48,822 nt of DNA from a virus (IMGVR_UViG_2541047788_000006); one strand, 5' to 3'. Shown: positions 2,304 through 42,134, counted from the first letter of the stretch. The notes: generated by a model not told the origin, from the sequence alone. A program made the numbers and translations.

Positions 2304-3076
2304 TATAATAAACTTACTTTTTTATCATTTTTCCACTTTAACAACATTTTGCTCCACTTTTCCACGACCAAACAACTTGAAATCTGGTTAAAATAACACG
2401 CAACACTATTCTTCTTCCTTGAGTCCGCCCGGAACTCGAAAAACAAACCGAGTTAAAGCCATTTTTCACAAAATCGATTTTGGGTCTCACCAAAATTACG
2501 GGGTTGCATACGCATTCGTTTATTTTCGAACGTGTACATACAAATATGTACAAAAATAATCAAAATTATTTTCTGAGATGCATTATGATATGAACACCAA
2601 TTTCGTATAGAATCTCACTATGTCTCGAATTTTTGCTTACTGTCGGATATCAACGCTGGATCAGACCACCGAAAATCAACGCCGGGAAATCGAAAGTGCA
2701 GGTTTTAAAATCAAACCTCAGCAAATAATCGAAGAACACATTAGCGGCTCAGCAGCAACCAGTGAGCGTCCTGGTTTTAACCGGTTGCTTGCTCGCCTGA
2801 AATGTGGTGATCAATTGATTGTGACAAAACTGGATCGCCTTGGTTGTAATGCAATGGATATCAGGAAAACAGTGGAACAACTGACCGAAACAGGTATCAG
2901 AGTGCATTGCTTAGCATTGGGGGGCATTGACCTGACCAGTCCAACAGGAAAAATGATGATGCAAGTAATTTCAGCAGTCGCTGAATTTGAACGAGACCTT
3001 TTACTTGAACGCACTCATTCCGGGATAGTAAGAGCCCGCGGCGCAGGGAAACGTTTTGGTCGACCACCTGTGTTAA

Positions 3077-4271
<1,195 letters not shown>

Positions 4272-4506: not shown

Positions 4507-5082
4507 CTACGGCAGTGCTGGCCATTCAATATCCTGTGCAGTTGACGTATCAACACGGTTCAGCAATACCCGATACTTTTTCCATGCTTCCAGCAACGAG
4601 ATTTCTTCCTCCGTTGCAATTTCCAGATCTGCAGCATCCTGAAGCGGCGCAATATGCTCACTGGCTACCTGCATCAGGTTGTTTTTTGTTTCTTCCGCCT
4701 CCCGGATCCGGAACAGTTTTTCTGCTTCCGTATCCTTCACCCAGGCTGTGCCGTTCCACTTCTGAAACTCCCCTTCCGGGGATAACCAGGTGACATTTTC
4801 CGGTAATGGGCCAAGTTCAGAAATAAATAACGCGTCGCCGGAAGCCACGTCATAGACGGTTTTACCCCGATGATCTTCAACGAGATGCCACGATGCCTCA
4901 TCACTGTTGAAAACAGCCACGAAGCCAGCCGGAATATCTGGCGGTGCAATATCGGTACTGTTTGCTGGCAGACCTGTATGAGGCGGAATATATGCGTCAC
5001 CTTCACCAATAAATTCATTAGTTCCTGCCAGCAGATTATAAATTTTTATGGTCCGTGGTTGTTCACTCATTCTGAATGCCAT
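4507..5082 (-). CDS. tfa: tail fiber assembly protein (Tfa)
   Basis: 191-aa ORF with the Tfa-family N-terminus ([35 protein letters not shown]); immediately downstream of stf. Its first ATG overlaps the stf stop (TAATG), with an alternative ATG at 5070. Confidence 0.85.
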
Positions 5083-7997
5083 TATGCAAGCCTCACAATG
5101 TAGTTAAATGCGATGTTTTTGACAGTGTTTTCCGCGTTACCAGCAGCGTTAACGGTGATGGTGTGTCCATGTGAGCCAATCGCAACAGAGTGCGTATGAG
5201 CACCAATACCGACAGTATGTGCGTGAGCACCTGCAGATGCAGCTGTGCCGCTGACACTATGAGTGTGCGCTCCTGCAGCACTTGTATTCACACTGGCCGC
5301 AGACACTACCTTATGTACTGACCCATTTTGTGACCACTGGCTGACTGCTGATGCGCCTGTGACACTATGAGTATGGTTTCCGGCACTTGCGGCTGTACCG
5401 CTCACACTGTGCGTATGCGCCCCGGTGTTATTCGTGGATTTAGTGCCGTAATCAAACGACGATGTGGTTTTCGTCCCCAAATCCGTACTGGATGCACTGG
5501 CGCTGTGGGTGTGCGATTTAATGCCGTCCTGTTCCTGAGACAATACGGCCCGACCACTGGCAGGTTTGCCCTTAATCGTCCAGCCACGCATATCAGGGAT
5601 CACGCCTGACGGATAAGCGGTTGCAAGTTTCGGGTAAGCGGATTTGTCAAAAGTCTGCCCCTGCATCAGGGCATAACCAGACGGAACGGTATCTGATGGC
5701 CACGGGATTGGTGCGCCAGGCGGATAAAACTGCTCTGATGGCGTATAGAGTGAATAAACTGTACCGTCCGTTAACCCTTCCGGCTTATTAGCAGAATATG
5801 CTGGTGACGTATGAATAGTCACGCTGGCATTACTGGTATAATCCCATTGAATATTTACACCAGTCGCATAATTTCCGATTGCAACGTAAATATCGTAAGT
5901 ATCACCAGATGTATTGACCCAGGCAAAATTTGTAAACCCTGTCGATGTGCGCTGCCATAAAGCACCAGTAATCCCCTTCGGATTACCATTACCTGCACGC
6001 AAAACAAGTTCAGATATACCTGCCTGTTGAGGTGACCCCACGTTAAATCCCGCGCCACCAATCAACGTAATTGAAACAACAGAACTCGCCTGTGGCATGG
6101 TTACCGTTGCTAATTTGAACCAACCAGCACCACCGCTGAATGACATTGTTGTTGAGTTAAGCGTACCAATATCTTTCGGCGTCAGTGTTATATCCGCTGA
6201 AAGCGCCTTACCATTCACCTTACGGGCAGAAGGTACCCGACCATTCGCATTATCATTAGCTGCTTTCACTGCTTTCGGTGTCGCGGCAAGCGTTTCAGAT
6301 GCGCTGTTGGTTGCACTACTGAGCTGGACAATTCCTTTTTGTGCTGTCGTAGCGTCCTGAGCAGTATATTTCCCGTTAGCAAGGTCATAGGCTGCCTTTA
6401 CCGACTTTGGCGTTGCCGCCAGCATTTCAGATGTGCTGTTGGTCGCGCTGCTGAGCTGAACTATCCCTTTTTGTGCTGTCGTTGCATCCTGTGCGGTGTA
6501 TTTCCCGTTAGCCAGCTCATACGCGGCCTTAACGGCTTTTGGCGTTGCCGCCAGTGACTCGGAAGTGCTGTTAGTCGCACTGCTGAGCTGTACTATCCCC
6601 TTTTTCGTCGTGCTCGCATCCTCAAGCGCCACGGCGGATGCAATATCCTCTGCCCGTTTTGCCGCTGTCTCGGCGCGCGTTGCCGCGGATTCCGCCGTAC
6701 TTTTGCTCTGAGCTGCCGCCGTCGCACTGCCAGCTGCCTCTGTCGCCTTCGTGGATGCCGTCGTGGCGCTGCCCTTTGCTGCTGACGCCTGTCTGGTCGC
6801 CTCATCTTTTGAAGCAGACGCAGATGATGCCGATGACGCCGCCGAACTGGCGGACGATGCGGCAGCCGTTTTTGAGGATTCTGCGCTGGTTTCCGACGCT
6901 TTCGCGTTCGTCTCGGATGTCTTCGCTGCGGAAGCAGACCTCGCTGCTGCGCTGGCCTGTTCAGTGGCTTCGCCAGCCTTCGTTGTGGCTGTTGAAGCGG
7001 ACGATGCGGCGCTTTCTGCCGATTTTCCGGCAGCGGTGGCACTGGCTGAGGCCTGCCCGGCACTTGTTGACGCGGCACTGGCAGACGACGCAGCCGCTGT
7101 TTTTGAGCCTGCCGCAGCTGAGGCGCTCTGTCCCGCTGCCGTCTCAGAAGACCTGGCGTTCGTCTCGGACGTTTTTGCCGCCTTCGCGGAATTTGCTGCC
7201 GCCGTTGCCGAGGAAGCTGCGCTACTGGCGCTCGAGGATGCGTTCGTTTCTGATGATTTTGCCGCCTCTTTTGAAGCCGACGCATCCCGGGCTGAGGTGG
7301 CAGCTTCTGACGCTTTCGTGGTCGCGGTGGATGCAGAAGTGGCGGCTGATTGTTGTGACGCTGCAGCATTCGTTTCTGACGTTTTCGCGGCAGCGGCACT
7401 GGTAGCTGCCGCGCTTTTTGAGGACTCTGCAGCGGCAGCACTTTTTTCCGCTTCAGTGGCCTTTGTTGATGCCGTTCCTGCGCTGGAAGACGCTGACTGA
7501 GCCGACGAAGCGGCCTGTCCGGCTGACGTGCTGGCTGCACGTGCTGAATCTGCAGCATCAGTCGCATGGGTTGCCGCCTCACGGGCAGATGTGCCGGCAT
7601 CACTGGCTGACTTCTTCGCGGCTGCCGTGTTCTGTGCCACCACGGACGCGTTACGCGCCACCTCTTCCACCATCTGTTCAAAACGGCGCAGTGCCTCCGG
7701 ACGGGCATCATCCTCCGTCATGGCACCGAGAAAATCATTCAGCGTACCGGGTTGAGAATCTTCATACACGGTGATGGTCCCGGCATGTGACGGCGGGAAT
7801 CCTTCCACCAACAGAATAACGCTGTACTGCCCGTACTCAACGTCCATGCTGTAACGCCCGGCTTCATCCGGATTTTCTGAGGCCAGCGTGTTCACCACCA
7901 CCGTGGTGCTGTTACGTTTTGCTTTCAGCTGGATTGTGCAGTTCTGTACCGGTTTTCCTGTGCCGTCTTTCAGTACACCTGAAATCTTTACTGCCAT
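5082..7997 (-). CDS. stf: side tail fiber protein (Stf)
   Basis: N-terminus [26 protein letters not shown] resembles lambda Stf; long Ala/Ser/Thr-rich segment, three 44-aa tandem repeats and C-terminal His-x-His repeats. Start taken at ATG 7997 (the ORF track begins at the upstream GTG 8003). Confidence 0.9.
6250..6700. repeat. three in-frame tandem 132-bp repeats inside stf
   Basis: Repeat units begin at 6301, 6433 and 6565 (period 132 bp) and encode the 44-aa unit [44 protein letters not shown] three times. Confidence 0.75.
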
Positions 7998-8007
7998 ATT
8001 CACCCCA

Positions 8008-8036
8008 CAAAAAAGCCCGCCTGAACCGGCGGGCTG
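8008..8036 (-). terminator. rho-independent terminator downstream of lom
   Basis: Minus-strand GC stem AGCCCGCC / GGCGGGCT with 6-nt loop followed by a U6 run; sits between the lom stop and the stf start. Confidence 0.55.
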
Positions 8037-8061
8037 TCATAACACTGTGTTACCTGGCTAA

Positions 8062-8661
8062 TCAGAACTTATAACCGACACCCACGATGAAACCGTCAGT
8101 GCGCCAGTCGCCACTGCCGGAGCCTTCATAAGCAATATCAATGGCCACGGATTCGGTCGGGTTAAACTGCACGCCAGCTCCCCACGCCAGAGACGTGTTG
8201 CTGTGGCGACCGTCATCACTTCCGGTCAGCACGTCGTGCGTTTTCCCCTTGTTGTCAGTTACGCGGAGATAATCCCCGGAGAAAGTCGACACACGGCTGT
8301 AAGCCATACCCGCCATCGCATACGCGCTGAACCATTCATTCACGCGCACAGACGGCCCCACCATCACGCTGAACCAGCGGTTACGCACGGAATCTTCATG
8401 CCAGCGGGTATCGCTGTAACGGGTAAGCTGGCGATTCTTGTCTCCTGCATAGCTGAATGACGTCACCAGCCCCAGTGTGTCCGTAAACTCATAACGGTAT
8501 TTCACGTTAATCCCGTTCAGATCATCACTGCCGGGAACGTTCGTCCGGGCATGAAGATACCCCGCGCTCAGCGTGGACTGATGTTCAGACGCCCATGCAG
8601 GCGCACCGGATACGGCCAGACAAATGGCTGCGGACAAAATGGCGGCATAAAGTTTACGCAT
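8062..8661 (-). CDS. lom: Lom/Ail-family outer membrane beta-barrel protein
   Basis: 199-aa ORF with signal peptide ([24 protein letters not shown]) and C-terminal ...GVGYKF typical of the Ail/Lom/OmpX family; occupies the lambda lom position after J. Confidence 0.9.
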
Positions 8662-8684
8662 AATTACCTCTCGCTTTTCTGCAA

Positions 8685-8710
8685 TAAAAAAGGCGTCATT
8701 TCTGACGCCC
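8685..8710 (-). terminator. rho-independent terminator between J and lom
   Basis: Minus-strand stem GGCGTCA / TGACGCC with 4-nt loop followed by UUUUUUAUU. Confidence 0.55.
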
Positions 8711-8727
8711 GTTCTGGGTTATAAAAT

Positions 8728-12129
<3,402 letters not shown>

Positions 12130-18339: not shown

Positions 18340-19089
18340 TTAACCTGCGGCGCTGACAGCCACCGCAGCCACTGCCACAAAATCGCCGTCAGAAGTCATG
18401 CCCACAATGCTGACACTGCCCTGCTTCACGCCTTTCACCGTGGCCACAAGCCCGTTCAGGGTCACCGTGGCAGTCTGTGGATCTGTCGAATGCACACTGA
18501 TCGCTTTGTCACTGGCTCCGTCAGGTTTTACTGTAAAGGTCAGCGTGGTGGTTGCTCCCACTTTTACACTGGCAGATGCCGGTGCCACCGTCAGCCCGGT
18601 AACGCTCACTGTTTCAGTGCCTTCCTCTGCCAGATACGGACGCCCCACACCGCTGATTTTCACTGTGCGGGTCATCACGTCTTTTGAGGCAATGGTTTTA
18701 CCCAGTGAGCTCAGCCAGCCACGGAAAACATCAACAGTGCCGTTGGGATATTTGATACGAAACGCGCAGACTTCACCGGAGTCGAACAACTGAACCAGTT
18801 TTTTCTGCCCGCTGTCACCCGGACGCCAGGCCAGCGTCGCCGAAGTATCACCGACGGATTTCTGCCCCTGGGTTGTCGTTTTCCAGTCTGCATCTTCATC
18901 ATCGAGATAAGTGTCATCTTCTGCATCAGCGGTCATTTCGCCAGGTTGCAGATCCTTCACCATCGCAAGACGCAGCCAGTCAGTGTCCGATAAAGGGTTC
19001 GCAAACGCATCGCCCTTGCCGGTGTACATCCAGAACGTCGTTCCCGCACCTTTCGTTTTTGCCAGTGGATTTGGTGTGGTCATTGCCAC
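18340..19089 (-). CDS. V: major tail tube protein V
   Basis: 249 aa with C-terminal Ig-like (Big_2-type) segment, as in lambda gpV. Confidence 0.9.
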   Translation of the reverse strand: MAMTTPNPLAKTKGAGTTFWMYTGKGDAFANPLSDTDWLRLAMVKDLQPGEMTADAEDDTYLDDEDADWKTTTQGQKSVGDTSATLAWRPGDSGQKKLVQLFDSGEVCAFRIKYPNGTVDVFRGWLSSLGKTIASKDVMTRTVKISGVGRPYLAEEGTETVSVTGLTVAPASASVKVGATTTLTFTVKPDGASDKAISVHSTDPQTATVTLNGLVATVKGVKQGSVSIVGMTSDGDFVAVAAVAVSAAG

Positions 19090-35721: not shown

Positions 35722-35973
35722 TTATTCTTCTGCAAAAGCAGAAAAGCCAGCTTTTATTCCGATCTCTTTCAATGCCTGTAATGAAGTGACAAACTCACCT
35801 TCGCGCAAGATAAATCCGTCCGTGACCCGAGCATCCACAAAATTAATTAACGCAGCCCCATTCTTTCGCAAACACATAATGCGGTAATGACTAACAAGAT
35901 TTCCATTTTCAACGCACACAGCATAGAGGCCATCTTCACAAAAAATTTTACGCAGTTCTTCGATGTTCATCAT
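35722..35973 (-). CDS. hypothetical protein
   Basis: 83-aa ORF between the hok terminator and the rem-position ORF; no recognisable motif. Confidence 0.4.
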   Translation of the reverse strand: MMNIEELRKIFCEDGLYAVCVENGNLVSHYRIMCLRKNGAALINFVDARVTDGFILREGEFVTSLQALKEIGIKAGFSAFAEE

Positions 35974-36091
35974 CAGAATCCTTCCGGATAATTAGCTCTC
36001 CCCTTTAAGGGACCATCCCTCTTATCCCTGCGCGCTACTTAAGTATTTTTGATTCTATTCCGGCACCGTCCAGATCTTCAAACGCGTTGAA

Positions 36092-36121
36092 AATAAAAAC
36101 AAAAACCCGCCGAAGCGGGTT
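36092..36121 (-). terminator. rho-independent terminator downstream of hokD
   Basis: Minus-strand stem ACCCGC / GCGGGT with loop TTCG followed by UUUUUGUUUUU. Confidence 0.55.
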
Positions 36122-36189
36122 AAGTGCGGGTGCGTTGAGGATGCCTGCCACATCAGAGGTGGCGAGGGATTTCTCCCTCGCCGGGTCTC

Positions 36190-36345
36190 TTACTCCTCAG
36201 GTTCGTAAGCTGTGAAGACAGCGACCTCCGTCTGGCCGGTTCGGATTCGTACCTCGCAGAGGTCTTTCCTCGTTACCAGTGCCGTCACTATGACGGTTAA
36301 ACAGATGACGATCAGGGCGATTAACATCGCCTTTTGCTGCTTCAT
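36190..36345 (-). CDS. hokD: Hok-family type I toxin
   Basis: 51 aa MKQQKAMLIALIVICLTVIVTALVTRKDLCEVRIRTGQTEVAVFTAYEPEE; the ORF track's in-frame upstream extension (to 36402) would be mok-like leader. Confidence 0.9.
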   Translation of the reverse strand: MKQQKAMLIALIVICLTVIVTALVTRKDLCEVRIRTGQTEVAVFTAYEPEE

Positions 36346-37467
36346 AGCCTGCTTCTCCTTGCCTTTCGGCTCGTAAGAGGCTAACCTACATGTGTCTAGC
36401 ATGAAATTGGCCTCAGATTAATGTTAAGCGTCTTGCAGGACGCGTAATGTTAACTGGGGCTTTTCTCTATCTGCCTTTGGTGTTCATGCCCGAGGCAGAT
36501 AGCCTCAAGCACCCGCAGCCATTCTACTTAACTACCGTTACCTCGCCAATATGAAATCAGTCAGAAAGGCGATCCATAAGAACAATAGCAAGACAATAAA
36601 TCGCCATTACAGCCGTAATAGCCAGCGCACATTTGAGAACCAGCACCACAACCTCCTGTATTGGACGTAGACCAGTCCTGATGAATATGAGGCTGTCTCG
36701 TCAGTGATTCAATACAACTATTGGGTATAGTTTCTCTGATTTTTTCTGTGGAAATGGGGCACAACCACTAGTCACCACCAGCACTTCTTTTAATACGCAA
36801 AGTCCGACACAAGCTAACCTTCTAGTCCGCTTTGAGCGAAAAACAGCCATAATTTAGTGCCACGTATATAATGATAGAGCTATTCAAGCTAGCAATTCAC
36901 ATGTAAAAATTCAGAGGGTAGAAGCACATAGTTATAAATGTTGGCTCCATCGACAAATTGCGGTCTCAAGTACATTTATTAATGTTGCCCCCGCATTAAC
37001 AAATCATCAAGGTGACGACATGGACGATATTAATATCAGCCTCGACGAACTTAACACTATTGATTTATCCCCCTTAATCCAGAGTAAGCTGCCAGTTACC
37101 TGCTTTGATATCACAAAGTATCTTTCTAGCCTAGGTGATGGAAGAGCGGAGATAAGACTGCTAACCCATATTTGCGGTTTTCACTTTCGTCCCGAAAATC
37201 CACAGGTACCATTTGGTCCGTGCTTTCAAAGCAGCCAAGGTAGATCTGCAATTCCGGATGACATTAACGGGTTGTCGCTGGAGGTACTTTCTCAATTTTG
37301 CCCGACGATAGAGCTACCCGAACTTCAAGCTCGTATTGCTGATACACTTTGGGTTCGTAAAATTGGTGGAATCCGTTTTCCTTTGCTGGCAGTCCGTGCT
37401 TATTATGCGTCCAGTATAGCTATTATGACATCGCAAGGGACGTGGGTTAGTGCTTTAGAACGCCTAG

Positions 37468-38662
<1,195 letters not shown>

Positions 38663-40224
38663 CTAGAGCGTGCGCTTAGGCTGTGTTGTTTTTTTCGAAA
38701 GAATACTGATTTCAGGGATGAATTTGATCAGCTTTCGGCACATCTACTAGCAGAGTATGAACGTACCAGAGAACAAGGCGATTCACCTTATCCGCTGCGA
38801 CTCCTGCAACTCGATATCGACTGTAAAGTGAGTGAGCCATCTTTTATTGCCCAGGAACTCCTGTTTCTGACAAAAAACTATCTGGCTCAAAAATTATTTT
38901 CATTTGCCGTCGATGCCTGTAAAACCGCAATCACGATTGCGAATAGGTGCTGTGACAGAGATACACAGTTTGAATTCTGGCGGCTTCTTGCCGATACACA
39001 TCTGGAAGAGTCAAAATTCCAAGATGGCGGTATGATTTCGGCAGCCTGCATGCAGAATGCTATTGAAGCACTGGCTAATATTCCAGGAACCCGAATAGAA
39101 CGTCTTGCGCTGTATGAAGAAATGCGTGATTACCAAATCGAATCCCGTCACCAGATGTCTATCCTTCAGTCTCCCCCTCAAGATATTAGTGAGATTGTCC
39201 ATCAAGCCAAGAGTCGGGTAGTCGGAAGAGATATGTTTGATATGGTTTTCAGACTTGCGATGCTGGTCTGTCGGCCAACCAGCATTGAGAGACTTAAGGC
39301 TCAAGCAATAGAACAAAAGGCCAACAGCATAGCTTGGATGTTTGGATCAACACATATTGATCATGAGGGAATGACACTTGCTCGCATACCCGCAGGATTG
39401 GGGATTGATGATGCAAATGGGGCAGTTATTTGGCCCATAATGATGACGAGAATGCGTATCGACCATGAGTTGGCAGTAGCTGGGCAAATTATTCCTGCTA
39501 CAGATGAGATCACAATGAAATATCCAATCTCGGAGGCGTTTTTTCGCGATATGTTCATCAATCATCCCTTCATCCCGTTTGGGCATGAAGAGTTTTTCAT
39601 CAAGGGTATGGTTTGCGGTTTCAATGGAGATTTTATGACGGCATGCCACGTGTTGATTCCCCAGATCGAAAATAGTCTGAGATATGTGGCTAAAATTAAA
39701 GGTGAGGAACCATCGCAGCTTCACGGGGACGGTTCGCAAGAGCGAAATGGACTCAAGGGATTACTAGATAATCCACTGATTATTGAAGCTTTCGGCGTAG
39801 ACATAATTGGCAATCTTCAGGCCTTACTGGTAGATAAAATCTATGGTGATTTACGAAATCAACTAGCTCACGGATATGTGCCTGCCGGTTACTACAATCA
39901 ACCTCCCTGCATTTTTGCATGGTGGCTTGTATTGCACATTCTAATGAACCCTACGGCGAGATACTGGCAAGCCACTTATGGCCAAGAGAGTGAGGCTCAG
40001 ACTTAAAGTGAATAAGTTTACGAAGTTGGCACTTCCGGATGCATGTCCATATGAGTTGAGGCGATTTGGTTAATAAGGTTGAGTGCTGCTGAAATTATTC
40101 GATGTCCGCTTTTGGCACAAAGCGGACAACCACGCCAGATCTACCCTGTGCCATGAAAAATGAGAATGTCAATTCACTCCTGAACTAATGCTTTTTAATC
40201 TAGTAACGTCTAAAATACCTAACA

Positions 40225-40666: not shown

Positions 40667-41686
40667 TTATCCTCTGAAACCAGGCGGAATTTCTGTATCC
40701 GGTTCAGAAATATGATTAACACAACGCTGTACAGGTGAACGCCCCAGGCGGATGACCAGTTCGTCCCATTTTTCGCGGAGCTTTGACGGGCTCATGATGT
40801 TTTTTACCCAGAATGGATCCCGCTGTACCCGACCAAACATTTCACAAATTTGTCTGTGGCTTCTGCCATCCAGCATCCGCATTGTGCGCACATCATTGGC
40901 CCAGACAGTCCAGTTAGGCTCTTTTGGTCGCATGATCTCGCCATCATCACTGGCGGCCTGTTCGTAGAGACCCACGATCCGCCCCCATATCCACTGCGCA
41001 CACGCCAGATCCTCCTGGCTACCCCACTGGCGTTTTTTCGCACTAAACACAACTGCGCCAGGGTGCCGGATTAAAAAATCCTGTTCAGCCGTCTGCGGGT
41101 CCGGTTGCGAAGCTTCCGGACGAAAAGTGTTTTTATTCTCTGTAGTAATCTCTGTTGTATTCTCTGTAGGATCATCGGGCCATTTTGACCCGATGACATT
41201 GGGTCGTTTTGAACCAATGGAGCGTTTCATTTTGACCTCTTCCATCGTGTCATTTTGACCTGATGGAGCGGCGCATTTTGAACCGATGGATTCGCTCAAT
41301 TTGCCATCATCTAAAAGCTCGCTTCCATAGTTAATCGTGTAGAAATTGGTCATATCGCGCTTTGATTTATTGAGCTTTTCACAACGCAAAAGCCCCAGCG
41401 TTTTCAGACTTGCAAACGCGCGCTTTAACGTTGACTCTGACCAGAATGGGAACTGTTCCAGCCATTGTTCCGTTGTGTTGTAAATCCAGCGAACACCATC
41501 ACATTCCATGCCGGAATTGGTATCTCTCAACCAGTAATGCAACTGCTGCAACACAATGGCTTCATTTAAGCCAATCTTCATCGCAAGCTGTGTGTTTATA
41601 ACCAGTGGGCGTTCAGCAAAAAGAAGGCTCATAATTCCATCCAGCTTTTTGTTGGTATTGCTGTCGATACGCAAGTTTGAAAGCAA
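40667..41686 (-). CDS. replication initiator (lambda O-like) with internal origin iterons
   Basis: 339-aa ORF; five ~23-bp iterons lie inside the coding region and translate to repeated SIGSK/IGSK peptide motifs, as in lambda O/ori; start may be the internal Met near 41632. Confidence 0.65.
   Translation of the reverse strand: MLSNLRIDSNTNKKLDGIMSLLFAERPLVINTQLAMKIGLNEAIVLQQLHYWLRDTNSGMECDGVRWIYNTTEQWLEQFPFWSESTLKRAFASLKTLGLLRCEKLNKSKRDMTNFYTINYGSELLDDGKLSESIGSKCAAPSGQNDTMEEVKMKRSIGSKRPNVIGSKWPDDPTENTTEITTENKNTFRPEASQPDPQTAEQDFLIRHPGAVVFSAKKRQWGSQEDLACAQWIWGRIVGLYEQAASDDGEIMRPKEPNWTVWANDVRTMRMLDGRSHRQICEMFGRVQRDPFWVKNIMSPSKLREKWDELVIRLGRSPVQRCVNHISEPDTEIPPGFRG
41175..41300. repeat. origin-type iterons (5 copies, ~23-bp period)
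   Basis: CATTTTGACC-type repeats at 41181, 41205, 41228, 41251 and 41274, each followed by YGATGGA-like sequence; flanked at 41121..41160 by short ATTCTCTGTAG repeats. Confidence 0.6.
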
Positions 41687-42134
41687 TTGCTTTTTCTATA
41701 AGTTCGTCAGTTTCACGATCCACTACGGCAGGATCAGCAAAAAGCAGTCCGGACTCCACCACATCGCCATATTCTTTGTTTAACCCGGCGATCATGTACG
41801 TGATGCTTTTTCCGTCACTAATTTCACGATACAACCTGAAATCATTAATCCGGATAGCCTCCATAATTGCAGGCACTAGCGCCGTGAACTTTTCACGCTT
41901 ATCCCTGGTGTCGATAGCCTTCCAGCGTTCGAATATCTTCACTCGATTAACGCCAAGCGCTCGCTGATCAACCGCGCCACCTTCATCTGTGACACGCTGA
42001 ACATCGATGTTCGGGCGCTCTTTCAAAGCCCAGAATGCTTCAGTGATTAATATCGTCGCCTGCTCCTGTGTCATTCCTGGTCGACATATCCAGGCATCCA
42101 GAGCCTCACGAGCCTGTTCAGGAGTGATTTTCAT
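41613..42134 (-). CDS. hypothetical early regulator (occupies the cII position downstream of the cro-like gene)
   Basis: 173-aa ORF immediately downstream of dicC-like gene; assignment by position only. Confidence 0.4.
   Translation of the reverse strand: MKITPEQAREALDAWICRPGMTQEQATILITEAFWALKERPNIDVQRVTDEGGAVDQRALGVNRVKIFERWKAIDTRDKREKFTALVPAIMEAIRINDFRLYREISDGKSITYMIAGLNKEYGDVVESGLLFADPAVVDRETDELIEKAIAFKLAYRQQYQQKAGWNYEPSFC

Follow-up and report, generated by a model that had tools for sequence, protein, structure and literature searches.

In Escherichia coli K-12, the toxin gene hokD (relF) of the Qin prophage is the third gene of relBEF. The window analyzed here, a stretch of viral DNA of 48,822 nucleotides (IMGVR_UViG_2541047788_000006), carries hokD without relB or relE. 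This raises the question of whether hokD is here an orphan toxin or part of a free-standing hok/sok-type module, and which of the two arrangements is the derived one. The sequence features and predicted RNA folds described below point, with a probability that we put at about 0.88, to a complete, free-standing hok/sok-type type I module at positions 36098..36549, which would represent the intact form of hokD and a close relative of hokW-sokW, with the K-12 arrangement being derived. The locus is ordinary, already annotated and already explained, and the integration of relBE into an ancestral hokD locus is already the published view.

RESULTS

The toxin gene, the mok frame and the terminator

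The hok gene (36190..36345, minus strand) is intact and is preceded by a Shine-Dalgarno (SD) sequence, AAGGAG, at 36360..36355. It encodes the 51-residue peptide MKQQKAMLIALIVICLTVIVTALVTRKDLCEVRIRTGQTEVAVFTAYEPEE, which is 100% identical to K-12 HokD over all 51 residues and belongs to the Hok/Gef family, with a match to Pfam PF01848 (HOK_GEF) of 81.6 bits against a cutoff of 22; identical DNA elsewhere is annotated as hokD by PGAP. The ORF list contains a longer frame of 70 codons (36190..36402, minus strand) that is in frame with hok and ends at the same stop codon. We assign it to mok: its ATG lies at 36402 (start codon 36402..36400), and the ORF matches PHROG 251, "MokW-like host killing" (E = 8e-33). 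The mok SD, GAGG (36411..36414, minus strand), falls within the Rfam match described below and is paired with the ucb element in the full-length fold and with the dcb element in the truncated fold. This layout is that of the annotated mokW and hokW genes of VT2-Sakai, where mokW overlaps hokW. The overlapping mok frame thus has an SD of its own, and coupling of hok translation to it is predicted.

Downstream of hok, the terminator scan located an intrinsic terminator of the hok mRNA at 36098..36121 (minus strand), with a 7-bp stem containing five G-C pairs; the G+C-rich hairpin, AACCCGCTTCGGCGGGTT, is followed by a T-run (36121..36098). The claim of the sequence-only reading that hokD is intact, with its own terminator and an in-frame upstream leader, is therefore borne out by the 51-codon ORF, the hairpin with its T-run and the 70-codon frame.

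Promoter, leader and predicted folding of the hok mRNA

A sigma-70-type promoter for the hok/mok mRNA is predicted at 36521..36549 on the minus strand, with a -35 hexamer TTGGCG (36549..36544), a 17-nt spacer and a -10 hexamer TAGAAT (36526..36521). It had 9 of 12 matches in the promoter scan, and its -10 is kept in hokW and in phage HannyBb. The predicted mRNA start is the G at 36514, 7 nt past the -10, which is also where position 1 of the Rfam model falls. This model, RF01794, represents the hok-sense leader, although it is called "sok"; it matches 36340..36514 (minus strand) over all 157 model positions, with 116 bits against a gathering score of 59 (E = 3e-27). The conserved leader structure, comprising the tac stem, ucb and the hairpin between the mok SD and dcb, is found both in this match and in the fold of the truncated RNA.

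The individual elements all lie on the minus strand. The tac element, GGGUGCUUGAGG, forms the mRNA 5' end (36503..36514) and pairs with fbi in the full-length RNA and with ucb when the 3' end is absent. It is followed by a 5' stem-loop (36467..36502) that belongs to the RF01794 consensus structure and is present in both the full-length and truncated folds; an upstream hairpin at 36469..36500, which had been proposed to belong to a mok/sok-type regulatory region, proved to be this stem-loop. The upstream complementary box, or anti-SD (ucb, AAGCCCCAG, 36454..36462), pairs with the mok SD region in the full-length RNA and with tac in the 3'-truncated RNA. The downstream complementary box (dcb, AGCCUC, 36377..36382) is the partner of the mok SD both in the RNA lacking its 3' end and in the Rfam consensus; the sok -10, on the other strand, overlaps it. 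Finally, the fold-back inhibition element (fbi, CCUCAACGCACCC) lies at 36128..36140 and is complementary to tac.

The predicted full-length mRNA of 417 nt (36514 to 36098) has a minimum free energy (MFE) of -175 kcal/mol, with a z-score of -7.5 relative to shuffled sequences. In this fold, positions 1 to 12 (tac) pair with positions 375 to 387 (fbi), and ucb pairs with the mok SD region. The long-range tac/fbi duplex comprises 12 bp with one bulge, at -21.5 kcal/mol, and only 3 of 1,000 shuffled 5' ends paired with fbi as well as the real tac did. Together with the Rfam E value, these figures place the features well outside what chance would produce. The 5'/3' pairing elements of hok mRNAs, for which a search had been recommended, were thus located in tac (36514..36503) and its complement fbi (36140..36128). 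When the RNA was cut in silico at positions 360 to 372, so that fbi was removed, the MFE fold contained tac/ucb and mok SD/dcb pairing instead. The hairpin loop of this open form reads CUAGACA (mRNA positions 116 to 122); from the R1 literature, we take it to bear a YUNR-type motif facing the 5' end of Sok. Both the closed-to-open switch and the tac/fbi/ucb/dcb model are known for the hok mRNA of plasmid R1 (PMC9841398).

Conservation of the tac/fbi pairing

Ten loci were compared: that of the window, hokW, HannyBb, a P1-like plasmid locus, K-12 hokB and hokC, and four divergent plasmid loci, from Klebsiella, Salmonella, E. coli and Photobacterium. A cognate tac/fbi duplex, with an energy between -15.6 and -24 kcal/mol, was found in all nine intact loci, and an fbi equivalent lies 47 to 69 nt past the hok stop codon in each of the eight intact loci other than that of the window. 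The tenth locus, K-12 hokC, gave an apparent duplex that was rejected, its presumed fbi falling inside IS186 sequence.

R1-like plasmid loci have GGCGC/GCGCC in place of GGGUGC/GCACCC, with a compensatory change from U-A to C-G, and hokB has GAGA/UCUC in place of GAGG/CCUC. Over the nine loci, 90% of cells were paired in register, compared with 30 to 57% when the partner was slid. Only one pair showed a compensatory change, and the covariation did not exceed the shuffle control; this control is uninformative because the helix is nearly invariant among the loci collected, and the weight therefore falls on the slid-register control and on the cognate duplex energies. What supports tac/fbi is conservation of the pairing more than covariation, which is weak.

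The sok antisense gene

The sequence-only reading had advised looking for a sok-like antisense promoter upstream of hok, and one was found on the plus strand at 36359..36387, with a -35 hexamer TTGCCT (36359..36364), a 17-nt spacer and a -10 hexamer TAACCT (36382..36387). Both hexamers are those of sokW, with one difference in the spacer. The hexamers are weak, TAACCT matching the consensus at three of six positions, and the promoter fell below detection in the generic sigma-70 scan.

A Sok-type antisense RNA of about 71 nt is predicted at 36394..36464 (plus strand), its coordinates having been transferred by alignment from the sokW misc_RNA of AP000422.1. In its predicted fold (-30.3 kcal/mol; z-score, -5.5), an unpaired 5' tail precedes a long terminator hairpin and a U-tract, and the RNA is perfectly complementary to the mok translation-initiation region (SD, 36414..36411; start codon, 36402..36400). 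At the level of sequence features, the locus thus contains a predicted antisense Sok with its own promoter and with complementarity to the site of mok initiation. Rfam matches below the gathering score, to isrK, rsmX, ceN48 and a plus-strand "sok" (18 bits), were set aside as chance or as generic likeness to a hairpin plus terminator.

Substitutions between the window and hokW cluster in the Sok 5' tail and its target loop (6 of 23 nt, compared with 19 of 367 elsewhere; Fisher p = 0.002, for a region picked after the alignment had been seen). These substitutions may reflect selection that insulates paralogous hok/sok modules of co-resident prophages from one another.

Relatives of the locus

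At the DNA level, hokW-sokW of VT2-Sakai/Sp5 (E. coli O157:H7 Sakai) is 93.8% identical to the window locus from the hok -10 through fbi, and mokW, hokW and a "SokW antisense RNA" are annotated in the VT2-Sakai region homologous to the window. The homology to hokW ends at the hok -10 on one side and just past fbi on the other, and a discrete module is thereby delimited. Like the window locus, hokW lies in a lambdoid prophage; however, its Hok differs from the window HokD at four C-terminal residues, and it has other neighbors in Sp5, whereas the window locus lies between replication genes and rem-ydfU-Q. Furthermore, the window locus has an intrinsic terminator right past fbi and is preceded by a conserved 29-codon ORF, and hokW has neither.

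The functional data on hokW-sokW come from Takada et al. (PMC8621323). HokW is toxic and is neutralized by sokW expressed from its own promoter, and mutation of the sokW -10, by primers YO-421/422 that alter the sequence corresponding to TAACCT, abolishes antitoxin activity. The system is of type I and is partly RNase III and Hfq dependent. Treatment with mitomycin C reduces the level of sokW RNA and increases that of HokW in a way that depends on RecA, and Sp5 release falls by half when the locus is deleted.

A 99.4% identical locus with the same neighbors is carried by the free phage HannyBb, where it lies between replication genes and homologues of rem, a 92-residue ORF, ydfU and Q. From promoter through fbi, the module is kept across phages, prophages and P1-like plasmids, and a recent survey found hok to be enriched in prophages (bioRxiv 10.1101/2025.08.07.668861).

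The mechanistic prototype, hok/sok (parB) of plasmid R1, has the same elements, namely, tac, fbi, ucb, dcb, mok and a Sok antisense RNA, and undergoes the same switch on 3' truncation that folding predicts for the window locus. However, outside a stretch of about 80 nt at the sok promoter and mok region, their DNA shows no detectable similarity, and the two loci differ in that mok is in frame with hok in the window and in that one is carried by a prophage and the other by a plasmid. HokW has 44% protein identity to R1 Hok (PMC8621323). Relative to the Rfam consensus, the window leader has an extra 16 nt in the region encoding the Sok hairpin. Slow 3' processing, duplex cleavage by RNase III once Sok has bound hok mRNA, and killing upon Sok decay are known for R1 (PMC9841398).

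Two loci of the K-12 chromosome, hokC (gef)/mokC/sokC and hokB/mokB/sokB, belong to the same Rfam leader family (118 and 110 bits, respectively). As in the window, mokC is in frame with hokC, and the annotated sok RNAs overlap the mok start; hokB retains a cognate tac/fbi duplex. In hokC, IS186 lies 20 nt past the stop codon and has removed fbi. Unlike the window locus, both are chromosomal and lie outside prophages, and their Hok sequences diverge from that of the window.

Search for relBE

K-12 RelE and RelB were searched by tblastn against all six frames of the 48.8-kb window at permissive settings (word size 2, E values up to 100). No RelE homologue was detected anywhere in the window (best E value, 1.1), and no RelB homologue either (best E value, 0.017, for 39 residues at 6511..6621, about 30 kb from hokD). 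Two weak, near-full-length RelE alignments, at 18607..18849 (E = 1.1) and 41685..41969 (E = 6.5), were rejected as chance matches, each lying within a longer ORF of the same strand; the second coincides in part with an ORF that matches a gene annotated in strain 118UI as "toxin YdaT family protein." Within 36346..37020, no stop-to-stop frame exceeds 68 codons. The earlier statement that no RelE- or RelB-like ORF lies upstream of hokD therefore holds, and so it does for short or unlisted ORFs, where the discovery of such a pair would have overturned it. The accompanying description of the upstream DNA as AT-rich was a mild overstatement, the G+C content being 39 to 46% over 36500..37100. In summary, the relBEF arrangement, in which relB and relE lie directly upstream of a hokD devoid of promoter and leader, is not that of the window locus.

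The relBE junction in K-12 Qin

K-12 Qin encodes the same HokD protein and shares the Q-side prophage neighborhood with the window, ydfT, ydfU, rem and hokD being common to both; the hok SD, 3' untranslated region, fbi, terminator and downstream rem are nearly identical. Identity between the two begins at AGGAGAAGCAGGCTATG, 14 nt before the hok ATG, and runs through fbi and the terminator into rem. Upstream of this junction, K-12 has an unrelated spacer of 71 nt, followed by relE and relB. The breakpoint lies at the edge of the sok -35, and K-12 Qin lacks the hok promoter, tac, the 5' hairpin, ucb, the mok SD and start codon, dcb and the whole of sok. A search of 12 kb of K-12 Qin with RF01794 gave no match, whereas the identical search detected hokB, hokC and hokE, and the model also matches hokW and the plasmid hok loci. 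What is left in K-12 includes an fbi and a terminator that are themselves orphans, and because its fbi has no tac partner, K-12 hokD is a remnant.

In K-12, relF/hokD is cotranscribed with relBE from the relB promoter (PMC3598666; cotranscription is also reported in PMC5120126). A passage of PMC6379469, quoting Ramisetty and Santhosh (2016), describes the ancestral hokD ORF as having about 70 codons, reduced to 51 in K-12 through relBE integration. The homology, together with this literature, suggests that the K-12 relB-relE-hokD arrangement is derived and that it arose by replacement rather than simple insertion. Annotation suggests that homology beyond relBE resumes around dicA/ydfA.

Frequency of the two forms in E. 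coli

In 5,426 complete E. coli genomes, each counted when it held at least 80% of the query, the K-12 junction from relE to hokD was present in 1,167, and the promoter, leader and 5' part of hok of the window locus were present in 4,036, about 3.5 times as many. In genomes that matched the leader query at all, the median number of matching places was two. A 951-bp stretch of the window (35950..36900) was present in 785 of the 5,426 genomes; all 30 of the matches listed were 100% identical, and the features beneath them were hokD and rem. Strain 118UI carries this 951-bp locus in identical form. The lack of relBE, on which the sequence-only reading had focused, is thus the commoner state in E. 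coli; it is no anomaly, because the K-12 arrangement is the rearranged exception.

Prophage context and neighboring ORFs

The window is a Qin-like lambdoid prophage, and the hok module lies in its nin region, with replication genes on one side and rem-ydfU-Q on the other. The layout of the ORFs is compatible with genes for tail, head and terminase upstream, and with an ORF of integrase size at the end of the window. From 29950 on, the window is colinear with a region of strain 118UI annotated, in order, with lysis genes, Q (ydfT), ydfU, rem, hokD, a divergent gene, replication genes and a cro/cI-type immunity region. Q, the replication genes and hok share one strand. The only difference from 118UI in this region is an IS5 element (37468..38662), inserted at a distance of about 0.9 kb upstream from the promoter of hok. 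The gene that it splits matches the PADLOC candidate defense family PDC-S39 (E = 8e-103).

Upstream of the module lies the 29-codon ORF already mentioned (36557..36646, minus strand), which encodes the hydrophobic peptide VLVLKCALAITAVMAIYCLAIVLMDRLSD, starts with GTG behind a GGAGG SD and stops 8 nt short of the hok -35. In six copies, with DNA identity as low as 82%, the frame stays open at an unchanged length. Third codon positions account for 12 of the 25 variable sites in it, whereas the upstream flank varies in 40 of 60 columns. No Pfam, PHROG or NCBIfam family matches it, and it is an annotated feature in none of the 16 RefSeq matches listed, although it appears in a few GenBank records as a hypothetical or membrane protein. 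YnfS, a 29-residue Qin small protein, was considered and rejected, since the two sequences are unrelated. This ORF could encode a genuine small membrane protein of the phage nin region that accompanies hokD-type modules and may cooperate with Hok or act upon it; we regard this suggestion and that of insulation through the Sok tail, taken jointly, as speculative and rather unlikely to hold. A 67-codon ORF at 36561..36764, which the sequence-only reading correctly described as being of no recognizable family, has no Pfam match, overlaps the conserved 29-codon ORF in another frame and is probably not a gene.

DISCUSSION

Our analysis favors the first of the two readings left open by the sequence-only reading, a free-standing module, since promoter, leader and sok are all present; the second, an orphan toxin, is excluded. 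By its predicted features, the module would operate as follows. The sigma-70-type promoter would start an hok mRNA of about 417 nt at 36514. In the full-length RNA, tac would be paired with fbi and ucb would cover the mok SD, so that the message should be translationally silent. Removal of fbi from the 3' end would allow tac/ucb and mok SD/dcb pairing, giving a translatable, Sok-accessible form as in R1. The plus-strand antisense promoter should in turn produce the Sok RNA of about 71 nt (36394..36464). By comparison with R1 and hokW, this unstable RNA would block translation of mok and hence the coupled translation of hok and would direct cleavage of the duplex by RNase III; when the supply of Sok falls, the stable processed mRNA would be translated, and Hok would depolarize the inner membrane. 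In K-12, relBE would have taken the place of the promoter, tac, ucb, the mok start and sok, so that the hok SD, ORF, fbi and terminator would be all that is left.

A complete sequence is no proof of activity, because the chromosomal loci hokA, hokB and hokC gave no postsegregational killing; the Sok RNA, the mRNA ends and the 3' processing described here are predictions. The alternative that fares best is a locus that is structurally complete but inert, a decaying hok locus of the kind proposed for the chromosomal hok loci of K-12. The summary in bioRxiv 10.1101/2025.08.07.668861, in which hokA, hokB and hokC show neither postsegregational killing nor rifampin activation, is in keeping with this, as are two IS5 insertions in the host prophage, which may itself be decaying. 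However, every element of the window locus is intact, and it shows 94% identity with hokW-sokW, which is functional (PMC8621323). Overexpression of the HokD coding sequence is toxic, according to a statement in the same preprint (bioRxiv 10.1101/2025.08.07.668861). Moreover, the module is conserved across phages, prophages and P1-like plasmids, and a free phage, HannyBb, carries its 99.4% identical copy. We therefore consider inertness improbable.

It is less probable still, indeed very unlikely, that hokD is here a toxin without an antitoxin, silent or controlled by mRNA structure alone. Such a toxin would account for the lack of a protein antitoxin and of RelBE, and for the failure of the generic sigma-70 scan to report a sok promoter. 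Yet the antisense hexamers are those of sokW, in which mutation of the -10 abolishes antitoxin activity, the predicted RNA is built like Sok and folds with a z-score of -5.5, and a full hok leader is present at twice the Rfam gathering score. That relBE was instead lost by deletion from an ancestral K-12-type operon can be dismissed: ydfT, ydfU, rem and hokD flank the site in both prophages and the DNA downstream of the junction is nearly identical, but the position of relBE is occupied in the window by a canonical hok leader and sok, homologous to those of hokB, hokC, hokW and the plasmid loci, the K-12 fbi without a tac partner makes sense only as a remnant, the published analysis as quoted in PMC6379469 gives the same polarity, and the leader-bearing form is about 3.5 times more frequent.

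With regard to the role of a complete hokD module, the most likely one, by analogy with hokW-sokW, would be the release of Hok on prophage induction, assisting lysis and phage release; this is the least certain part of our interpretation, and prophage stabilization ranks second. It can be envisioned that, once the prophage is induced, antiterminated early transcription in the rightward direction would pass through the locus and run counter to the sok promoter, which would fit the observed fall in sokW RNA.

The main value of these findings lies in correcting annotation and interpretation; the locus itself reveals no new biology. The relBEF operon of K-12, often used as the reference form of hokD, would be a truncated remnant without its antitoxin RNA, whereas most E. 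coli genomes carry the complete module. In other strains, one should expect an independently transcribed, Sok-controlled toxin and not a hokD that is cotranscribed with relBE or affected by its deletion. Since hokW-sokW is the only prophage hok/sok system with a demonstrated role, in lysis and phage release, the same role is a reasonable hypothesis for the modules of Qin-like prophages.

A conserved small ORF beside hok

A conserved, hydrophobic small ORF of 29 codons (VLVLKCALAITAVMAIYCLAIVLMDRLSD) with a GTG start lies at 36557..36646 on the minus strand, preceded by a GGAGG SD sequence (36656..36652, minus strand), and the -35 element of the hok promoter begins 8 nt past its end. In six copies, with DNA identity as low as 82%, the frame remained open and its length was constant; codon position 3 accounted for 12 of the 25 variable sites, and the flank upstream of the ORF varied far more than the ORF itself. 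Among the RefSeq matches listed, it was an annotated feature in none of 16, and searches of Pfam, PHROG, and NCBIfam returned no family. A few GenBank records label it a hypothetical or membrane protein, for example, ACT39199.1 of REL606. Unlike the hok locus of the window, hokW, the related module of phage VT2-Sakai/Sp5, has no counterpart of this ORF upstream.

Escherichia coli S21 (NZ_CP010230.1, 870746..870900) carries a 92% identical copy of the small ORF plus upstream flank with no hok/sok module after it; homology to the window ends at approximately the position of the hok -35 element, and the neighboring genes encode an MFS transporter and a DUF1971 protein. This break may be the boundary of a prophage remnant.

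IS5 insertions in the prophage

Transcribed divergently from hok is a DUF7380/DUF4209 gene in two parts (37020..37467 and 38663..40006, plus strand), separated by an IS5 element (37468..38662) that duplicated its CTAG target on insertion. The unsplit 595-amino-acid protein of E. coli 118UI (7071..8858 of the 118UI region compared) matches PDC-S39 (E = 8e-103), a candidate antiphage defense family in PADLOC. A second IS5 copy (3074..4271), 99.9% identical to the first and inverted relative to it, sits in the tail fibre end of the prophage; this inverted pair, 33 kb apart, could mediate an inversion of the prophage segment between them.

Regulatory elements of the hok module

The match to Rfam family RF01794, labeled as the sok antitoxin, falls on the hok-sense strand (36340..36514, minus strand), with the hok AUG as its end point; therefore, the family models the leader of hok mRNA and not Sok RNA. 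An annotation pipeline that uses RF01794 would assign "sok" to the strand opposite the true one and make it over twice as long as Sok. The hok Tyr47 codon falls within a UACG motif (GCUUACGAA; 36204..36207, minus strand), which is conserved in the window. At hokD of the K-12 Qin prophage, the 3' element fbi and the terminator (5040..5120 of the Qin sequence compared, minus strand) are identical to those of the window, and tac, the partner of fbi at the mRNA 5' end, has been lost; fbi in the K-12 relBEF transcript is an orphan element.

Substitutions between the hok locus of the window and its paralogues were concentrated at 36394..36416 (mRNA positions 99 to 121), which comprises the 5' tail of the predicted antisense RNA Sok and the target loop. 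In this region, which was chosen after the alignment had been inspected, the window differed from hokW at 6 of 23 nt, compared with 19 of 367 nt in the rest of the module (Fisher P = 0.002, post hoc), and from a P1-like plasmid copy at 7 of 23 nt, compared with 49 of 367 nt in the rest (P = 0.03, likewise post hoc). Such clustering would fit selection against cross-talk among coresident hok/sok copies.
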